Source of the DNA: a virus
Lineage: Duplodnaviria > Heunggongvirae > Uroviricota > Caudoviricetes
Virus record (IMG/VR): IMGVR_UViG_2541047961_000012
Span: 1-6,113 of that record
Reading direction: 5' to 3' (one strand)
Length of the DNA stretch: 6,113 bases
Shown one piece after another: positions 1 through 6,113 of this stretch. Below the pieces are notes generated by a model. It worked only from the letters and a program-made list of their open reading frames with translations. It was not told the DNA's origin and searched no databases. Both the position numbers and the translations under genes were made by a program. Positions within the stretch are counted from its first letter, which is position 1. Each line of letters opens with the position of its first letter.

Positions 1-252
1 CTGTTTTCTGGCGTCTCCTGCCAGTGTGATGGTTTTGTCCTGTTTTTCCTGTGCGTCCAGGCTTTTATTAATCAGGTTGCCCAGCGGCGTGGCGGAGAAC
101 GCCGCATCAGCCATTTCCTGGCGGCGCTCGTTCTCTACCCGGTAGGCATCCAGCCAGGAGGAAAGCGCGGATTCAGGAGCGGGGATCCCCGTTCCTTCAC
201 GCCCCACTGCGTGGCGCGGTTGTTGCCAGTCCCTGATGTACTCTGCCGTCAT
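1..252 (-). CDS. hypothetical protein, N-terminal 84 codons only (gene runs off the left edge)
   Basis: Hand translation of the minus strand: ATG at 252..250, open to position 1 with no stop (MTAEYIRDWQQPRHAVGREGTGIP...). It starts 6 nt after the TAA (261..259) of the upstream gene, with only a weak SD. Absent from the ORF track because it is truncated. No family recognised. Confidence 0.45.
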   Translation of the reverse strand, partial: MTAEYIRDWQQPRHAVGREGTGIPAPESALSSWLDAYRVENERRQEMADAAFSATPLGNLINKSLDAQEKQDKTITLAGDARKQ

Positions 253-258
253 AGTGAT

Positions 259-624
259 TTACTTCGTCATGCCATTCAGGGTGTCGCGGCAGACTGTAGC
301 CAGCCGCTGAATTTCCAGCACGGTGTCTTCTGTGTCGGCATGGCGATGTGTGATGCGGATGCTGTCGGCAATCACATCGACGATTGCAGAGGATGGGCGC
401 TGGTAAATGCCAATAACGGACGGGGTGCCGCCTTCAATGCGGTAAAGCCTGTAATTTCCCTCGTGGCTGTCAATCATGTAGCGGCCATCAATAACAATCT
501 TTCCGTCAGCGAGCTGCGGTACAGGCAGGGATTTCAGGTACATGTCATAACGGTCACGCACGCGAACGGCAAGATCACGCTCTGTGTTGAGCAGGTATTC
601 AAGAAAGTCGTTGGCGAGAATCAT
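259..624 (-). CDS. hypothetical protein (121 aa)
   Basis: ORF in track. SD AAGAGGA sits 9 nt upstream of the ATG at 624..622. Composition is protein-like, unlike the overlapping plus-strand frame, which is Cys/Arg-rich. No family recognised. Confidence 0.6.
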   Translation of the reverse strand: MILANDFLEYLLNTERDLAVRVRDRYDMYLKSLPVPQLADGKIVIDGRYMIDSHEGNYRLYRIEGGTPSVIGIYQRPSSAIVDVIADSIRITHRHADTEDTVLEIQRLATVCRDTLNGMTK

Positions 625-696
625 TGCGGCAATCCTCTTGTTACAGATGTGCGAAGGCCTCCCGCCGCAAGGTGCAGGAAAGGCCCGGAACAGGAA

Positions 697-927
697 TTAA
701 TGGAGTTTGTTTTGCTGCTGGATGAGATCCTGAAGAGACAGGAGGTCTTCCGCCAGATAGCTGAATACAGCGGCGCAGTAGTCGGCTGAAATAGTGTTGT
801 TGAGTCTGTGCAATGTGTTGGATTGCATGATAAAGGCGATGTGTGCAGCGCGGGTGAGTCTGCGATCGATTTCAGTCTGGATGTGACGACGCTCCGCGAT
901 AGTGCGGTGCTGTTTGCGGTTTGCCAT
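697..927 (-). CDS. hypothetical small basic protein (76 aa)
   Basis: ORF in track. SD AAGAGG sits 8 nt upstream of the ATG at 927..925. Arg-rich N-terminus (MANRKQHRTIAERRHIQ) could be nucleic-acid binding. No family recognised. Confidence 0.5.
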   Translation of the reverse strand: MANRKQHRTIAERRHIQTEIDRRLTRAAHIAFIMQSNTLHRLNNTISADYCAAVFSYLAEDLLSLQDLIQQQNKLH

Positions 928-1020
928 GGTGTGGCCTCTTTGTTGGTAAGTTTTGAATACTCACCATCCAGAGCTGCGAAACTGTGGGTGGCGAGACGTA
1001 CGAGGTTCGCAGTACCGGTC

Positions 1021-1056
1021 AACAAAGAAAACCCGGCCCGACCGAAGTCGGCCCCG
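1021..1056 (-). terminator. candidate intrinsic terminator (minus strand)
   Basis: Minus strand reads GGGGCCGAC-TTCG-GTCGGGCC followed by GGGTTTTCTTTGTT: a GC-rich stem with one mismatch, a UUCG tetraloop and a T-rich tail. Confidence 0.35.
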
Positions 1057-1106
1057 TACGCCCCACCATAATTCTGATGCGAAAAAATGTGCGGCAATGC
1101 GGTACG

Positions 1107-1234
1107 CACAAAAAAACCGCTGGCGCGGTTGTGCGCTTTGTTGATCAGCAGGCTGCGAAACCCGGCACCCGTTTTATGAGATGCAACGGAAATGTAACCT
1201 GACTGATTGCGGCATGGCAAGCGGTTTTTTTGTG
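1107..1234. repeat. 15-bp perfect inverted repeat pair flanking 98 bp (cacaaaaaaaccgct at 1107..1121; agcggtttttttgtg at 1220..1234)
   Basis: Exact reverse complements, checked base by base. Each arm carries an A7 or T7 tract. The left arm also forms a local hairpin (cgcacaa / ccgc-tggc-gcgg / ttgtgcg) that reads as stem plus T7 on the minus strand. Confidence 0.6.
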
Positions 1235-1247
1235 AGAACGGCATACT

Positions 1248-1292
1248 AAAAAAATCCTGATACTGCTCCGGCCAGCGATTTTCACTGGCCGG
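1248..1292 (-). terminator. candidate terminator of the SPFH operon
   Basis: Perfect 8-bp GC-rich stem (ccggccag 1268..1275 / ctggccgg 1285..1292) with a 9-nt loop, starting 6 nt after the TAA (1301..1299) of the SPFH gene. On the minus strand a T7 tract (1254..1248) follows, but 13 nt beyond the stem, so geometry is non-canonical. Confidence 0.4.
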
Positions 1293-1298
1293 GTTTAA

Positions 1299-2129
1299 TT
1301 ACTTCACCGGAACAAACGGAACAGCGGTGTTGCTGGTCATGTATTGCGGCAGCGTGCCGTTCCATTTGTTGATTGCTTCCAGCTCCATAACGCCGGGATT
1401 CTGGCGCAGAGCTTCACCGCGTAAACGAATGGCGTCGGCTTCAGCCTGGGCTTTTGTGCGAATGGCATCAGCCTGTCCGGCAGCTTCTGCGCGCAACATG
1501 TTGGCTTCTGCTTCGCGTTGCTTGACTTCCTGTTCGCGTTGCAGGGTTTTCTGGTTTGCCGTGACTTTGGCATTAATGCTGTCGATAACGGTTGACGGGT
1601 ACTCCGGCTTACCCACATATGAGAGGCTCATTACCTGAATACCGATGGGTGTCATTTCCTCCTGAATGTCTTTAAGAGCTGCATCCAGTAGTTCAGATTT
1701 CCCGCCGTCGATAAATTTGTCGGTGGTCATTTTGCTGGCCAGTCGGTTGAGTGCATCGGCGATCTTCTGGCGCAGGTCAGTGTCGGTAATGTCATCCACG
1801 CCTTTGCGGTAGGTCTGAAACACTGTAGTAACTTTGGATGGATCAACCTTGTAGGCCACACCGATGTGATAGCCGATGGTTGTGCCGTCACTCATCTGGA
1901 AGCTGAACGGCTCATCGTAGGTCTTCATTTGTTTGAAGGTCGGGAAGATGTAAACCTCGGTATTCCAGCCAGTCCAGTAGCGGCCAACGCCAACCACTTC
2001 GCCGACGCCTTTGTCGTCGCCCAGTTTATTTACCTTGATGCCCACATTACCTGGCTCAACGCGATCGCAACCAACCAGCAGGATGGCGGCAAAAAGCGGG
2101 ATAATCTGAAAGAGTTTGAGTTTCTTCAT
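1299..2129 (-). CDS. SPFH/Band-7 (stomatin/prohibitin/HflKC-like) domain lipoprotein, 276 aa
   Basis: ORF in track. SD GAGGAAA upstream. N-terminal lipoprotein signal MKKLKLFQIIPLFAAILLVGC with lipobox LVGC, and Asp at +2 (CD...). C-terminal Ala/Glu-rich helical region with AEADAIR-type repeats typical of SPFH proteins. The start ATG (2129..2127) overlaps the upstream stop as ATGA. Family call is from motifs only, no HMM run. Confidence 0.8.
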   Translation of the reverse strand: MKKLKLFQIIPLFAAILLVGCDRVEPGNVGIKVNKLGDDKGVGEVVGVGRYWTGWNTEVYIFPTFKQMKTYDEPFSFQMSDGTTIGYHIGVAYKVDPSKVTTVFQTYRKGVDDITDTDLRQKIADALNRLASKMTTDKFIDGGKSELLDAALKDIQEEMTPIGIQVMSLSYVGKPEYPSTVIDSINAKVTANQKTLQREQEVKQREAEANMLRAEAAGQADAIRTKAQAEADAIRLRGEALRQNPGVMELEAINKWNGTLPQYMTSNTAVPFVPVK

Positions 2130-2329
2130 TGTTTGATTTCCTCAATGTATTTACTGAAAAAGCGAACAACGCCTGCCGGGTACAGCAGGGCAATGAAAAT
2201 GCCCAGCAATACCAGGAAGGAACTGTCAGATGAAATCATTCGGGGGAGTAGTCCTGCATACAGGATGAGAGAAATGAGGACGCATACCAGCGCCCACATG
2301 TATGCGCGAAACCATGTCTTGTTGTTCAT
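2126..2329 (-). CDS. small two-helix membrane protein (67 aa)
   Basis: Start chosen at ATG 2329..2327 (MNNKTWFRAYMWALVCVLISLILYAGLLPRMISSDSSFLVLLGIFIALLYPAGVVRFFSKYIEEIKQ). SD AAGGG sits 7 nt upstream and overlaps the TAA of the preceding gene. Two hydrophobic segments with basic termini. The stop overlaps the SPFH start as ATGA. Confidence 0.65.
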   Translation of the reverse strand: MNNKTWFRAYMWALVCVLISLILYAGLLPRMISSDSSFLVLLGIFIALLYPAGVVRFFSKYIEEIKQ

Positions 2330-2339
2330 GTTGCGGCCC

Positions 2340-2639
2340 TTACTGGTTAAGGAAAAAATCGAAAACCTTGTCAATGCGTTGCAGCAGCTCTTGCTGTATT
2401 GCTTCCGGCGTTTCCGGTTCTCCTGGCGCCTCCAACGTCGCGCAGAAATCCTTGATTTCATGATGGAGTGTCAGGCGAATGGCAGGAGCTGTGGTTCTGG
2501 CGTGCTCCAGTTCATCCAGTAGCGCCAGCACGGCAGACGGCGAGAGCATTGCGCGAAACGCCAGTAATTTTTGATGCGTTGCCATTCGTTGCAGGTCAGT
2601 CGCCAGTTCGCGTAATTCCTGGTGGTTGATGGCGCTCAT
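2340..2639 (-). CDS. hypothetical acidic helical protein (99 aa)
   Basis: ORF in track. SD AAGGAAG sits 9 nt upstream. The start overlaps the upstream stop as ATGA (2639..2636). No family recognised. Confidence 0.6.
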   Translation of the reverse strand: MSAINHQELRELATDLQRMATHQKLLAFRAMLSPSAVLALLDELEHARTTAPAIRLTLHHEIKDFCATLEAPGEPETPEAIQQELLQRIDKVFDFFLNQ

Positions 2640-2881
2640 GCTCTGGCTTCCTTCAGTAGCTGGTTAAACATGTTGGTAAGTGGATTGCCGCCCCCGAACG
2701 GCATCGGGTTTATCTGGTAAGAAAAGCGACCGCCTGTTTTGCGCTCTTTTCTTATGACTGAACCGCTGCGCCAGAGTCGGCGTAACTCCGCATTAATGGC
2801 TGTGGTTGGGGTATTCAGTGCTGCGGCGATTTCTCCACCGCTACACCCCGGATTGGCGGCGATATAGTCCAGAATGGTCAT
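2636..2881 (-). CDS. small winged-helix DNA-binding protein, FaeA/PapI-like (81 aa)
   Basis: ORF in track. SD AGGAG sits 9 nt upstream. N-terminal ILDYIAANPGCSGGEIAAAL... resembles the FaeA/PapI-type small wHTH regulators as I recall them. The start overlaps the upstream stop as ATGA (2881..2878). Not verified by search. Confidence 0.55.
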   Translation of the reverse strand: MTILDYIAANPGCSGGEIAAALNTPTTAINAELRRLWRSGSVIRKERKTGGRFSYQINPMPFGGGNPLTNMFNQLLKEARA

Positions 2882-3081
2882 CTGCGTGACTCCTGTACCT
2901 GTCGGATAAGGTTCACCCGCACCACGTTGGTGGCGCAGAAGTAAGTGCCGTCAGTGAGATAGATGTGATGTGCATCCTGTTCTGAACGGTGTTTGTCGAT
3001 TGTGGTAATCAGGCGTTCGTCGACCTCGTATTCACGTCCTCTGGAAGTGAAACGAACGACAGGAAAATGCTTAATTGCCAT
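2878..3081 (-). CDS. hypothetical protein (67 aa), first gene of the SPFH operon
   Basis: ORF in track. Strong SD AAGGAGG sits 5 nt upstream of the ATG at 3081..3079. Preceded by an 86-bp non-coding gap. No family recognised. Confidence 0.55.
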   Translation of the reverse strand: MAIKHFPVVRFTSRGREYEVDERLITTIDKHRSEQDAHHIYLTDGTYFCATNVVRVNLIRQVQESRR

Positions 3082-3167
3082 TGCGCCTCCTTGGCGTGTG
3101 CGAATACCTCCGCGAATGCGGATTGTTTTTACATTTTCTTATTTAACCTGTGGTTTTATTTGCTCTG

Positions 3168-3281
3168 TTATTCGCCAGTGAAAAAGCGTTCAATCTTTTT
3201 TACTGAATGAATAATTCGCATAATCCCAATGGCGCAGACCACCGAAATAATCAGAACAAGCCATGAGATAAATATACTCAT
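3168..3281 (-). CDS. 37-aa hydrophobic micro-protein (MSIFISWLVLIISVVCAIGIMRIIHSVKKIERFFTGE), predicted single-pass membrane peptide
   Basis: Found by hand translation, too short for the ORF track. ATG 3281..3279 overlaps the TGA (3280..3278) of the upstream 80-aa gene as ATGA. A 20-residue hydrophobic helix is followed by a basic tail. Stop TAA at 3170..3168. Only a weak GGGA SD-like element. Confidence 0.4.
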   Translation of the reverse strand: MSIFISWLVLIISVVCAIGIMRIIHSVKKIERFFTGE

Positions 3282-3520
3282 GCGATATTTCCCAGCTTAT
3301 ACGGTTCAATATGTTCCCCGCATTCTGCGGCACAGATCAACTCGGAAAGTTCGTTAAGTGCATCCAGATCATCAGCGTAAAAAGCCACGTCATACAGACT
3401 CCGGATTGCCCTGGTCAATGAGTCACGGGCTGCACGTTCAGCATGAGCGCCTGATGCACTTAAGCGAAAATAAAAACGCTCAAGTGCTTTGTTAATGAGA
3501 GTTTTATATTCTTTGCCCAT
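3278..3520 (-). CDS. hypothetical protein (80 aa)
   Basis: ORF in track. SD AAGGG sits 7 nt upstream of the ATG at 3520..3518, 11 nt after the upstream stop. No family recognised. Confidence 0.55.
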   Translation of the reverse strand: MGKEYKTLINKALERFYFRLSASGAHAERAARDSLTRAIRSLYDVAFYADDLDALNELSELICAAECGEHIEPYKLGNIA

Positions 3521-3531
3521 CGCAACGCCCT

Positions 3532-3819
3532 TTAATCTGCTTTCTGAATTTCAGTTTCTGAATCCATACAAATAATTTCGATATAGGGTTCATCGCCATT
3601 AGCCGGGCGTGCCTTTTCAGCTTCACTAATGATTTCTCGTACGGTCTGGTACGGAAGTTCCACAAGCAGTCGCGTGCCGTTCAGATAAACGTAAGTGGCT
3701 TCGTTGGCTCCGTTTTTACCCGCCGGAGCCACTCCATCAATAGCGGATGCGCGTAATAACAGTTCACCGCGAAAATCAATAAAACGGATAAATACACCTT
3801 GTGCATGCTCTTTGGTCAT
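3532..3819 (-). CDS. hypothetical protein (95 aa)
   Basis: Track ORF 3532..3879 trimmed to the internal ATG at 3819..3817 (MTKEHAQGVFIRF...). That start has SD AGGTG 5 nt upstream and lies 10 nt after the upstream stop. The longer start at 3879 has no SD and would overlap the upstream gene by 50 nt. Confidence 0.55.
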   Translation of the reverse strand: MTKEHAQGVFIRFIDFRGELLLRASAIDGVAPAGKNGANEATYVYLNGTRLLVELPYQTVREIISEAEKARPANGDEPYIEIICMDSETEIQKAD

Positions 3820-3829
3820 AACGCACCTG

Positions 3830-4180
3830 TTATAAATCAGCCTGTTTAATAAAACTTTGCCCGCGAAGCAGACGATCAACCGTGCGAAGTGCTTCGTATA
3901 ATGTGAAATCCTGTCCGAACTGATTGTCGCCGCAGCTCAATGAAAAAATGCGGTTTCCGGTAAACGGATTGCGTGGGCATTTGTGGACCACGATCCCGGC
4001 TTTCTCAATCAGCCAGGTATGCTCGCCGATTTGTTTTACTGGGTAGCCATCCGGCGTTGCGTGTGTTTCGCTCAGGCTGTAGCGAGAGCTGCTACGTGAT
4101 GCGCTGGTAGCGAAACGGTTAGCATGGCGTTCCGCACCGTTGCGGAAGCGCTGCTGTGAAGAATTGCGCCGTTCCTTCAT
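3830..4180 (-). CDS. hypothetical protein (116 aa) with a basic Ser/Arg-rich N-terminal region
   Basis: ORF in track. SD GGAG sits about 9 nt upstream of the ATG at 4180..4178. First gene after cox. No family recognised. Confidence 0.55.
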   Translation of the reverse strand: MKERRNSSQQRFRNGAERHANRFATSASRSSSRYSLSETHATPDGYPVKQIGEHTWLIEKAGIVVHKCPRNPFTGNRIFSLSCGDNQFGQDFTLYEALRTVDRLLRGQSFIKQADL

Positions 4181-4217
4181 ATCAAAATACTCCGCCTAAA
4201 ATGAGTTATGGTTTGAG

Positions 4218-4643
4218 TTATGCTGCTTTACCGCTGATGTTTCTGTTTCGTCTGCCACTTGTTGGCTTAAACAAAAACAGACGGTTTTCCCAGTCGTGCC
4301 ATTCCTGAGGTGCGTTTTCGATGAGGCGATCGCATGCTTCATCCCACGCTTTTCTGTTGATGTAGAGTTCAGCGTTTCCGCCTGGTTTAAGAGGGTCCGC
4401 CATATACACCGCAGGTAGCTTTCCTGCTTTGGCCATGCTTACGATGGCGTCAACGGTCTTTCCGATATACATCGCAAATCCTTCTTTTGACAGGAGATGC
4501 GAGGGATTTTCTGAAAGTCGAATTTCTTCACGTTCACGTGCTTTGCGTCCTGTTTTTTGATACTCCCCCTCTGGCATTTCTGACAGGCGATCGCATCGTG
4601 TTCCGCAAAGTGACTCAGGCGCGTTTTGAGTGCTTTCTTGCAT
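4218..4643 (-). CDS. cox: Cox/Apl-like excisionase-regulator homolog with a roughly 50-aa N-terminal extension (141 aa)
   Basis: Divergent from the C-type repressor. Core FAMYIGKTVDAIVSMAKAGKLPAVYMADP resembles the P2 Cox HTH region as I recall it. Strong SD GGAGG sits 8 nt upstream of the ATG at 4643..4641; the internal Met23 has no SD. Confidence 0.7.
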   Translation of the reverse strand: MQESTQNAPESLCGTRCDRLSEMPEGEYQKTGRKAREREEIRLSENPSHLLSKEGFAMYIGKTVDAIVSMAKAGKLPAVYMADPLKPGGNAELYINRKAWDEACDRLIENAPQEWHDWENRLFLFKPTSGRRNRNISGKAA

Positions 4644-4751
4644 CTGATATCCTCCGCTATTGGTGCTTTCTTCTAACTAGCACCATTTAGAACTAGTTAG
4701 CGCAATTCGTTGTGTGTTAATTGATGTATAAACTAAGTGAGTTAACTTACT
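4644..4751. promoter_or_regulatory. C/cox divergent switch region with operator-like dyads
   Basis: 108-bp AT-rich gap between divergent start codons. Inverted repeat CTAACTAG (4673..4680) / CTAGTTAG (4693..4700) with a 12-bp spacer. AACTAG direct repeats at 4675 and 4691. Dyad TGGTGC (4661..4666) / GCACCA (4680..4685). TATAAA at 4727..4732 preceded by TG. Exact promoter hexamers could not be assigned. Confidence 0.55.
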
Positions 4752-5051
4752 ATGTCAACTACCGTAGCTATGAAAATTCGCATCATGCGGAAGTCAGAAA
4801 TGCTTACACAAGAAAAAATGGCAGAGATTACTGGGCTTACTCTTGCTGCATTAAGGCAATATGAGCAAGGACGAAATGAACCCAACCTTGAGTCAACAAA
4901 AAAGCTTCTGAAAGCCCCCATGTTCCGTAAGTACCGCGACTGGTTTTTGTTTGATGAAGTTGAACCCAAGGCCGGGCAGGTTGTACCGGCTCTCGCACAC
5001 ATTGGGCAAGGCGAAGCGGAATCATCCCGCTCCGGCAAGAAGACTGGTTAA
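4752..5051 (+). CDS. C: P2 C-type immunity repressor (99 aa)
   Basis: ORF in track. Same length as P2 C, and the sequence (MSTTVAMKIRIMRKSEML...VPALAHIGQ...SGKKTG) closely resembles P2 C as I recall it, with an HTH near the N-terminus. Sits directly upstream of int on the same strand, as in P2. Confidence 0.85.
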   Translation: MSTTVAMKIRIMRKSEMLTQEKMAEITGLTLAALRQYEQGRNEPNLESTKKLLKAPMFRKYRDWFLFDEVEPKAGQVVPALAHIGQGEAESSRSGKKTG

Positions 5052-5117
5052 CGGTTCACCAGGCATTTATTTCCCAGAGCTGTGATCAAGATGATGTTTT
5101 CATTGGAGGGCTTCCTT

Positions 5118-6113
5118 ATGTCGATTAAGAAGCTCGCTAATGGCAAATTCTGTGTGGACGTGCGGCCAGCTGGATCAGAAGGAAAAAGATTCAGGCGGCG
5201 ATTTGATACTCGTGGTGAGGCTGTTTTGTATGAGCGTCATGTATTGCAGCATTACCACGACAAAGACTGGGTTGATAAGCCAACAGAACGGCGCTCGCTG
5301 AGGGAGTTGCTGGATTGTTGGTGGCTATACCACGGGAAAAATCATCCTTACGGTGCGATGGAGCGAGTGCGTATTTCTGCGGTCATTAGTGATCTTGAAA
5401 GTATTAATGTTACACGCAGCGACCAACTTACTCGTAAGAACATAATTAATTATCGGTTATTGTTGCTTAACCGCGGAATAAAACAATCCACGGTTAATCG
5501 TTATTGCGCAATGATGAGTGGTTTCTTCACAAAACTAATTGACGCAGAGGAATATTCTGGGGCTAATCCGTTTCATGATGTGAAAAAACTTAATATCAAA
5601 CAGCCTGAAATGGCTTATTTGTATCATGAGGATATTCCACGATTACTGGAGTTGTTATCTGGTGATGAATTAAAAGCTGTCTTGTTGTGTCTGGCAACAG
5701 GTGGAAGATGGAGTGAGGTTGCAAATATCAAGGGGGAGCATGTTATTAGCGGCAAAGTCATTTTTATGGAAACCAAAAATGGGAAGCGTCGCGTTATACC
5801 TATATCGTCAGAACTGGAGTGCATGATTAAAACAAAGGCCACTGGTCGTTTAATTTATCCAAGTTATGCCGCTGTCAGAGCTGCTATCAGAAAGGTGAGG
5901 CCCGATCTTCCTGAAGGGCAGTCGATACATGTTTTACGGCATACCTTTGCCACTCACTTCATGATTAATGGTGGGAATATCATCACTTTGCAGAGAATAC
6001 TTGGGCATAGCACTATTCAGCAGACGATGACTTATGCCCATTTTGCACCGGATTATCTGCAGGATGCTGTGCGCTTTAATCCTGTGGCTGAGTTGTCCAG
6101 ATATTGCCCATAA
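5118..6113 (+). CDS. int: tyrosine site-specific integrase, P2 Int-like (331 aa)
   Basis: Start moved from the track's 5082 to the ATG at 5118, which has SD GGAGGG 7 nt upstream and gives MSIKKLANGKFCVDVRP..., like the P2 Int N-terminus. C-terminal catalytic signature HVLRHTFATHF...GHSTIQQTMTYAH (H-x-x-R box and Tyr nucleophile). The stop TAA is the last 3 nt of the window. Confidence 0.9.
   Translation: MSIKKLANGKFCVDVRPAGSEGKRFRRRFDTRGEAVLYERHVLQHYHDKDWVDKPTERRSLRELLDCWWLYHGKNHPYGAMERVRISAVISDLESINVTRSDQLTRKNIINYRLLLLNRGIKQSTVNRYCAMMSGFFTKLIDAEEYSGANPFHDVKKLNIKQPEMAYLYHEDIPRLLELLSGDELKAVLLCLATGGRWSEVANIKGEHVISGKVIFMETKNGKRRVIPISSELECMIKTKATGRLIYPSYAAVRAAIRKVRPDLPEGQSIHVLRHTFATHFMINGGNIITLQRILGHSTIQQTMTYAHFAPDYLQDAVRFNPVAELSRYCP

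Follow-up and report, generated by a model that had tools for sequence, protein, structure and literature searches.

The window analysed here is the whole of a 6,113-nucleotide (nt) stretch of viral DNA (Caudoviricetes; IMG/VR record IMGVR_UViG_2541047961_000012, positions 1 to 6,113). It aligns over all 6113 bases with the Escherichia phage P88 (Xuanwuvirus, Peduoviridae) at 95.3% identity and covers the part of a P88-like prophage of the P2 family that holds the immunity and early genes. Five tightly packed genes on its minus strand (1299-3081) had been read from the letters alone, in what we call the original prediction, as a self-contained unit and a candidate for an undescribed accessory or exclusion module. 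Comparison with relatives divides them differently. By their profile matches and distribution, the first three are resident conserved early genes of the P88-like lineage. The last two encode a protein of 67 amino acids (aa) with two transmembrane helices (2-TM) and an SPFH (Band 7) lipoprotein, and alignment identifies them as a mobile cassette of about 1.1 kb. On balance, we lean towards the whole picture of a resident early trio joined by a mobile pair, the pair acting as a membrane-scaffold module that would be expressed by read-through early in lytic growth. The five genes are, in gene order:

3081-2878, minus strand: gene for a 67-aa early protein, conserved in relatives (PHROG 3459, 1.9e-45)
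2881-2636, minus strand: gene for an 81-aa winged-helix protein (Pfam MarR_2, 2.1e-6, and HTH_24, 7.2e-6; PHROG 1687)
2639-2340, minus strand: gene for a 99-aa acidic early protein, weakly Ead/Ea22-like (PHROG 4144, 8.5e-62)
2329-2126, minus strand: gene for the 67-aa 2-TM partner, with two hydrophobic helices (PHROG 1130, 'membrane protein', 2.9e-22)
2129-1299, minus strand: gene for the 276-aa SPFH lipoprotein (Pfam PF01145, 1.8e-30; PHROG 200, 'lipoprotein', 9e-112)

A mobile two-gene cassette behind resident early genes

We found the trio (67-aa, winged-helix and Ead-like genes, at a coverage of at least 80%) in at least 1043 of 5426 complete Escherichia coli genomes, and the trio together with the 2-TM/SPFH pair in 145. 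Regardless of context, 744 of these genomes (~14%) carry the pair. Its matches divide roughly equally between chromosomes (prophages) and plasmids, and most of these plasmids are probably phage-plasmids of the P1-like and SSU5-like kinds. In E. coli O145 RM8843 (L007; loci compared with the window carry L numbers), BLAST homology to the window ends at 1234 and restarts at 2319; the isrK promoter region lies ~20 nt after the stop codon of the Ead-like gene and the pair is absent. The 99-aa gene is retained in relatives that lack the cassette, which is apparently dispensable because close relatives have the empty site. In the Citrobacter phage Shae_phiSM, the same site is occupied by the gene for a 183-aa DNA-binding protein. 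By these alignments, the cassette is flanked by the stop codon of the Ead-like gene and by the isrK promoter, and a second cargo slot lies upstream of the trio:

1235-2339, minus strand: mobile cassette (slot B), consisting of a 10-nt leader, both genes and a 3' hairpin, delimited by BLAST against the empty-site relative
1268-1292, minus strand: GC-rich hairpin 3' of the SPFH gene, with an 11-bp stem, absent from the empty site and so part of the cassette
3082-3167, minus strand: 86-bp gap, the second cargo slot (slot A), empty here and holding an open reading frame (ORF) in relatives

The left edge of the cassette is imprecise, as ~20 nt (2319-2339) still align with the empty site. Inspection of the junctions by eye showed no flanking repeats or att-like sites, just this residual similarity. 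A foreign composition of the cassette was considered and rejected, since its GC content and its GC content at third codon positions resemble those of neighbouring genes. Slot A holds a 105-138-aa ORF in relatives (L008 1437-1853, L009 2500-2817, L010 2529-2939 and, in Shae_phiSM, L002 5079-5489). Variable cargo among related int-C-cox elements, which had been raised as a possibility for the whole block, is thus what we observed for the 2-TM/SPFH pair but not for the first three genes.

The gene packing itself is as first described, with five minus-strand ORFs of the predicted lengths. ATGA overlaps join the 67-aa gene to the winged-helix gene, the latter to the Ead-like gene, and the 2-TM gene to the SPFH gene, and the 10 nt between the Ead-like and 2-TM genes are the sole gap. 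Each start is preceded by a Shine-Dalgarno-like purine run (from the 67-aa to the SPFH gene: AAGGAGG, CAGGAG, GAAGGAAG, TAAGGG and GAGGAA), that of the 2-TM gene (TAAGGG) being weak. This tight translational coupling across all five genes is what speaks for one co-functional operon, in which the winged-helix and small proteins would work with the membrane pair. The same coupling reaches upstream genes outside the block, where the DUF4754 gene and a 37-aa ORF meet in another ATGA overlap, so the block is not self-contained. Moreover, most relatives carry the trio without the pair, and no trio accompanies the pair in Leptospira or in the lambdoid, P1-like, SSU5-like, N4-like, rV5-like and jumbo phages. 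We rejected the co-functional unit on these comparative grounds and give it hardly any credence; as trio and pair occur independently of each other, the module consists of two genes, not five.

The boundaries drawn around the five genes fared in a similar way. Both the 86-bp gap and the hairpin exist, yet the packing continues upstream of the gap and the hairpin was rejected as a canonical intrinsic terminator, its U7 run beginning 13 nt past the stem (an 81-nt stretch folds at -23.4 kcal/mol, z = -3.5).

Among the products of the trio, the 99-aa protein is acidic as predicted (isoelectric point 5.2). It reaches Pfam Ead_Ea22 (PF13935) at 2.6e-4 and 22 bits (cut-off 27) over 29 aligned residues, and its P88 homologue is named ead/Ea22-like in RefSeq. 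The label FaeA/PapI-like given earlier to the 81-aa protein did not survive, as its best Pfam matches are MarR_2 and HTH_24, and the FaeA/PapI family is absent from its Pfam matches at E <= 0.1; on these matches it is a generic winged helix. We also noted that the 67-aa protein (profile positions 84-134) and the winged-helix protein (162-243) match one and the same profile, PHROG 19053, which has 246 residues. As one profile matches both, the two genes may form a single ORF in some phages.

Mosaic breakpoints were seen inside the SPFH gene (window 1332-2072 against phiP27, L003, 2513-3253). The ~93% nucleotide identity to phiP27 and to Shiga toxin (Stx) phages is confined to the SPFH mature domain; in the signal peptide, the last SPFH codons and the 2-TM partner, the window has another allele than phiP27 and the Stx phages. 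The two partner alleles read LLPRMISS and LVPFLISM.

An SPFH lipoprotein and its constant 2-TM partner

The product of the last gene is, by profile search, an SPFH lipoprotein, as had been proposed. The Pfam Band_7 match (106.7 bits, cut-off 23.6) spans residues 23-209. It is preceded by a signal peptide (MKKLKLFQIIPLFAAILLVG-C21) whose lipobox, LLVG-C21, agrees with the pattern [LVI][ASTVI][GAS]C and is conserved in 79 distinct phage homologues. The protein ends in a conserved KWNGxLP motif. Its identity across phages is 49-93% (63% to N4 gp20). At position +2 the window protein has Asp22, and the 79 versions have D in 49, E in 14, Y in seven and other residues in nine. Asp at +2 is the classical inner-membrane retention signal in lipoproteins of Enterobacterales. 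We infer that the SPFH lipoprotein is exported, lipid-anchored and probably kept on the periplasmic face of the inner membrane via Asp+2.

This Asp+2 also bears on lysogenic conversion, in which the lipoprotein of a lysogen would reach the outer membrane or vesicles and act on the animal host or on envelope fitness. A precedent, which we liken to our protein by description only, is the HflK/C-like prophage protein PM0222 of Pasteurella multocida, reported to be a vesicle-borne virulence factor that signals via TLR1/2 (PMC9872710). Prophages of pathogenic E. coli, Stx phages among them, often carry the SPFH gene. Inner-membrane retention argues the other way, as do the carriage of the pair by virulent phages and Leptospira chromosomes and the lack of space for a promoter in the cassette, and we regard this role as highly improbable.

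An AlphaFold2 (AF2) monomer model of the SPFH protein shows an SPFH alpha/beta domain followed by a coiled-coil helix of ~65 residues (179-243), at moderate confidence (predicted local distance difference test, pLDDT, 69; below 50 at the C-terminus). Foldseek matched it to HflC, HflK, prohibitin, erlin, stomatin, flotillin and QmcA with a probability of 1.00 and E from 6e-14 to 1e-8. The first and fourth places among these matches go to chains from the HflK/C cage of E. coli (7vhq). The closest solved sequence is E. coli HflK, at a weak E = 6e-4, and HflC and HflK are the sole NCBIfam matches, far under the equivalog cut-offs (TIGR01932, 24.3 bits against 134.4; TIGR01933, 23.5 against 159.4). 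We therefore rejected an HflK/C orthologue.

A mimic of HflK/C is a different proposal, in which the SPFH cage would bind or co-assemble with HflK/C-FtsH and alter FtsH proteolysis, possibly stabilising sigma-32, LpxC or phage regulators in favour of phage development or of one outcome of the lysis-lysogeny decision. The sequence, structure and NCBIfam matches just given point in this direction. So do the agreement in predicted topology (membrane-anchored N-terminus and periplasmic SPFH domain) and the high conservation, which suits a conserved host target. Lambda CIII provides a precedent for control of FtsH by a phage (PMC1838920). Set against this are the weakness of the similarity (17-19% identity; ~24 bits against NCBIfam cut-offs of 134-159) and the similar scores of prohibitin, erlin and stomatin, which make it a match at superfamily level. 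The constant partner is a 2-TM protein and no protease, and no genome context examined showed a link to FtsH. We consider such a mimic distinctly unlikely.

The 2-TM partner has no Pfam family match. It forms a helical hairpin with the loop motif L-P-x-[LM]-[IV]-S-[AS], a proline in the second transmembrane helix and a basic C-terminal tail. These features are common to the partner homologues in all phage lineages opened, with Pro29 invariant in the alignment; by these shared features, the small partner proteins of different phages are homologous. An NfeD partner was rejected, since no NfeD match at E <= 0.05 was obtained for the window protein and 14 homologues (noise-level matches only). A word-index homology search with the 2-TM protein found near-identical sequences only, so a hidden Markov model (HMM) built from phage partner sequences was used.

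In every lineage opened, a 2-TM ORF of 55-78 aa lies directly 5' of the SPFH gene, mostly overlapping its start. The nucleotide identity of the SPFH gene is 87-93% in lambdoid (phiP27, Stx2 phages) and P1-like phages, ~75% in SSU5-like phage-plasmids and 65-72% in virulent N4-like, rV5-like (Vequintavirinae) and jumbo phages. The pair was located in:

phiP27: SPFH protein L05, partner ORF unannotated
N4: gp19/gp20
SSU5: SSU5_061/062
P1-like RCS47: partner ORF unannotated
Klebsiella, Serratia and Erwinia phages, PVP-SE1 and the jumbo phage fENko-Kae01

The expectation that the SPFH protein pairs with a small membrane protein was borne out when HMMs from these sequences were run across 261 loci: the partner was detectable upstream in 247 of 259 SPFH genes (107 distinct core sequences). 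The 12 misses comprise nine loci of one lineage (L199-L207), in which a divergent 2-TM ORF is present (two loci inspected), a single fusion, and a truncated SPFH gene that accounts for two of the misses. Two loci, L263 (Shigella flexneri) and L264 (E. coli ECMA0423), have an SPFH gene without a partner (~3700-4003), and the DNA abutting the SPFH start in both is presumably the end of an IS1 element.

A search of 1.84 billion cluster representatives returned 219 clusters at E <= 1e-30. Among the best 150 of these 219 family representatives, 16 have partner and SPFH protein fused in one ORF. The order is 2-TM, basic linker, signal or lipobox helix and SPFH domain in 15 of the 16:

N-terminal partner fusions: P0139, P0146, P0151, P0153, P0155, P0160, P0161, P0166, P0179, P0182, P0191, P0195, P0212, P0243 and P0273
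C-terminal partner fusion: P0144

Fused forms are Rosetta-stone evidence and suggest that partner and SPFH protein act together; the fusion order fits a periplasmic position of both the partner loop and the SPFH domain. Many fusions keep a lipobox after the third hydrophobic segment, where cleavage by LspA might separate the two halves.

Outside phages, three Leptospira species (L278, L279 and L280) carry the pair on the chromosome (~3778-4825) and not in a prophage. In L278, the only Leptospira neighbourhood scanned with Pfam, the pair adjoins sdhCAB, and the upstream ORF layout is the same in L280. The Leptospira pair is followed by a 154-157-aa ORF without a Pfam match. The pair also occurs in contigs of Sutterella and other gut metagenome-assembled genomes, and a contig profile scan with a narrower alignment returned 20 loci. 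It is probably a cellular membrane-scaffold system that phages have co-opted.

Elsewhere among temperate and virulent phages, the pair lies among replication or recombination genes on the same strand; in phiP27 it is on the same strand as int and xis. In Vequintavirinae, we noted a soluble ORF of 54-57 aa between the 2-TM and SPFH genes (L095 2388-2552, PVP-SE1 gp116; L094 2632-2805), which may be ribbon-helix-helix-like. The record of the SPFH homologue ENKO_388 of fENko-Kae01 (L093 1826-2665) flags detection by liquid chromatography-tandem mass spectrometry. In the Vi01-like phage Sajous1, proteomics detected gp200 with three retrievals (PMC10892097); this protein bears the name 'SPFH band 7 lipoprotein' and is alike by annotation name only. 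Both detections could reflect membrane carry-over or true association with the particle.

Expression and a possible role at the inner membrane

The five genes are the distal half of a ten-gene string that begins at cox. The gene order of the window, taken from the P88 annotation and HMM scans, is that of a P2-type early operon, in which the genes for the integrase and a C-type repressor point away from a string that is led by cox and reaches the replication endonuclease:

5082-6113, plus strand: integrase
4752-5051, plus strand: C-type repressor (HTH_3)
4643-4218, minus strand: cox (Pfam Phage_Cox, 5.5e-28)
4180-3830, minus strand: DUF4761 gene (Pfam DUF4761, 5.9e-70)
3819-3532, minus strand: 95-aa ORF
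3520-3278, minus strand: DUF4754 gene (Pfam DUF4754, 2.8e-54)
3281-3168, minus strand: 37-aa ORF with a single transmembrane helix (MSIFISWLVLIISVVCAIGIMRIIHSVKKIERFFTGE), 'membrane protein' in the P88 annotation
3168-4643, minus strand: upstream half of the gene string, from cox to the 37-aa ORF
1220-1191, minus strand: promoter-like site of the isrK-like RNA, from the promoter scan
1184-1110, minus strand: isrK-like Hfq-binding small RNA (Rfam RF01394, 66.4 bits, cut-off 50), with its own terminator
1073-984, minus strand: C4 antisense RNA (Rfam RF01695, 77.8 bits, cut-off 45)
927-697, minus strand: 'derepression protein' gene, 76 aa (P88 annotation)
624-259, minus strand: 121-aa ORF
start at ~252, minus strand: replication endonuclease (gpA homologue)

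The cox-led string is the counterpart of the repressor-controlled early operon of P2. The five genes do not take the place of the B/A replication genes, as had been supposed; the replication endonuclease sits downstream of them, the same as in P88. The 37-aa ORF was not listed in the original prediction. The isrK-like and C4 RNAs (984-1184, minus strand) form the downstream boundary of the unit, ahead of the 'derepression protein' gene. Their layout resembles the c4/ant control of P1 and the isrK/anrP antirepressor control of Gifsy-1, but here within a P2-family phage.

Only 10 nt lie between the stop codon of the Ead-like gene and the 2-TM start, too few to hold a separate promoter for the cassette. 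A crude consensus scan found no promoter-like site in 2330-3170, the 86-bp gap included; the same scan also missed the Pe/Pc promoters, that of the cox-led string included. Since the cassette lacks promoter space and stands at the end of the cox operon, its most likely mode of expression is read-through from the early promoter in the lytic phase, not expression from the repressed prophage. The lack of promoter space together with the presence of the pair in virulent phages argues for a lytic role at the inner membrane rather than prophage defence.

The exclusion role first suggested can be narrowed to the pair, which would then form a superinfection-exclusion or abortive-infection device and block incoming phage DNA at the inner membrane, whether in the lysogen or in the course of lytic growth. 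That the pair is variable prophage cargo would fit exclusion, as does the envelope location predicted for both products. Known exclusion proteins include small inner-membrane proteins and lipoproteins (T4 Imm/Sp, P22 SieA, T5 Llp), and the N4 pair adjoins gp18, annotated 'superinfection exclusion, similar to P22 gp17'. The suggestion of a prophage accessory or exclusion module is weakened by several observations. No significant match was obtained in PADLOC-DB v2 (none for the SPFH protein, 0.021 for the 2-TM protein, noise at E >= 0.01 for the others), in line with the earlier statement that no nuclease, ATPase or known defence domain is visible, and the Pfam exclusion families were unmatched. 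Exclusion proteins usually diversify, whereas the SPFH protein keeps an identity of 49-93% among phages whose injection machineries are unrelated. The cassette, devoid of promoter space, belongs to the cox-led string, and the pair also occurs in virulent phages and is a core chromosomal locus in Leptospira. Finally, the cassette lies upstream of gpA within the early gene string and outside the documented P2 defence hotspot, which is between gpA and gpQ, next to cos (PMC9122126). We see no support for a defence function and judge an exclusion device to be rather unlikely.

The reading that we favour, a membrane scaffold made early in lytic growth, can be set out as follows. By analogy with the HflK/C-type or stomatin-type cages, the SPFH lipoprotein most likely oligomerises into a cage on the periplasmic face. 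The 2-TM partner would expose its conserved loop to the periplasm and its basic tail to the cytoplasm, and would probably sit beneath the cage or nucleate it, with the cage over or around it. As to the effect, we can only speculate that the pair is a general scaffold by which a patch of inner membrane is organised or shielded once the cell is infected. Such a scaffold could make the membrane more stable or tie up a conserved inner-membrane protein of the host. A general scaffold rather than a fast-evolving weapon is suggested by the conservation of the SPFH protein across phages with unrelated injection and lysis machinery and by the Leptospira version.

A number of points weigh against this reading. 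In the literature searched, we found no paper testing any member of the family, just annotation-level mentions of phage SPFH proteins. The AF2 model is of a monomer with a pLDDT of 69, so the cage rests on analogy. Residues other than Asp at +2 (Glu, Tyr and others) in 30 of 79 phage versions indicate that retention may not be universal, and the high conservation is compatible with a conserved host target but names none. Two strong terminators (isrK and C4) stand between the SPFH gene and gene A, and the promoter scan is crude, so that a promoter may exist inside the Ead gene.

We put forward a wider proposal more tentatively, and hold it to be possible but doubtful. The pair may represent a distinct class of SPFH system, with a non-NfeD partner and facing the periplasm, that many phage families captured from cells. 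They would deploy it early to build a cage over the inner membrane on its periplasmic side, sealing the cell against DNA entry or membrane-attacking defences or trapping a host membrane protein.

The pair among known SPFH and exclusion systems

SPFH scaffolds such as HflK/C, stomatin, prohibitin and flotillin are understood as membrane cages. The pair is a compact and genetically tractable version, with one lipoprotein and one 67-aa partner, and it is present in model phages (N4, P1-like, lambdoid and P2-like). This makes it practical for asking what an SPFH cage does, and it may reveal an unrecognised envelope function of phages. If true, the periplasmic-cage reading would describe a new general phage strategy for takeover of the host envelope; N4 gp19/gp20, and genes that ~14% of complete E. 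coli genomes carry, would then have their first assigned function. Two annotations can be corrected already: the label 'serine protease' is unfounded, and the partner ORF was missed in some records, e.g., that of phiP27.

The direct homologues, with the same pair arrangement, are P88 gp11/gp12, N4 gp19/gp20, phiP27 L05 and SSU5_061/062, and the P88 pair has ~95% DNA identity and the same context as that of the window. The pair was thus not undescribed, since these genes are annotated and PHROGs 1130 and 200 cover both members. Database labels of the homologues are 'membrane protein', 'lipoprotein', 'SPFH domain protein' or, wrongly, 'serine protease'. The pair is known as sequence; the conserved partner, the fusions and the cellular homologues were not found described in the literature searched.

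Exclusion proteins (T4 Imm/Sp, P22 SieA, T5 Llp and Ltp) are likewise small phage-encoded inner-membrane proteins or lipoproteins that act at the envelope, some of them early. Searches of Pfam, PADLOC and PHROG detected no sequence or family relation between them and the pair, and none of them is known to contain an SPFH domain. The phage pair is also much more conserved across phage types and, unlike them, is a cellular gene pair as well.

The SPFH-NfeD operons (E. coli QmcA-YbbJ, PDB 8z5g; Pyrococcus stomatin PH1511-PH1510) similarly combine an SPFH scaffold with a small membrane partner, and fused forms are known. The phage pair differs from them in that the partner lacks an NfeD or any soluble domain, the partner gene comes first and the SPFH domain is predicted to be exported, whereas the SPFH domain of QmcA faces the cytoplasm.

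E. coli HflK/HflC, which form a cage around FtsH (PDB 7vhq, 7wi3 and 9cz2), are the best sequence and structure matches. The phage SPFH protein differs from them in its low identity (17-19%), in a lipid anchor instead of a transmembrane helix, in being phage-borne, in forming a single SPFH subunit instead of a K/C heteropair, and in having a 67-aa 2-TM protein instead of a protease as partner. It shares with them the superfamily, an N-terminal anchor, the SPFH domain followed by a long coiled-coil helix, and the predicted side of the inner membrane, the periplasm.

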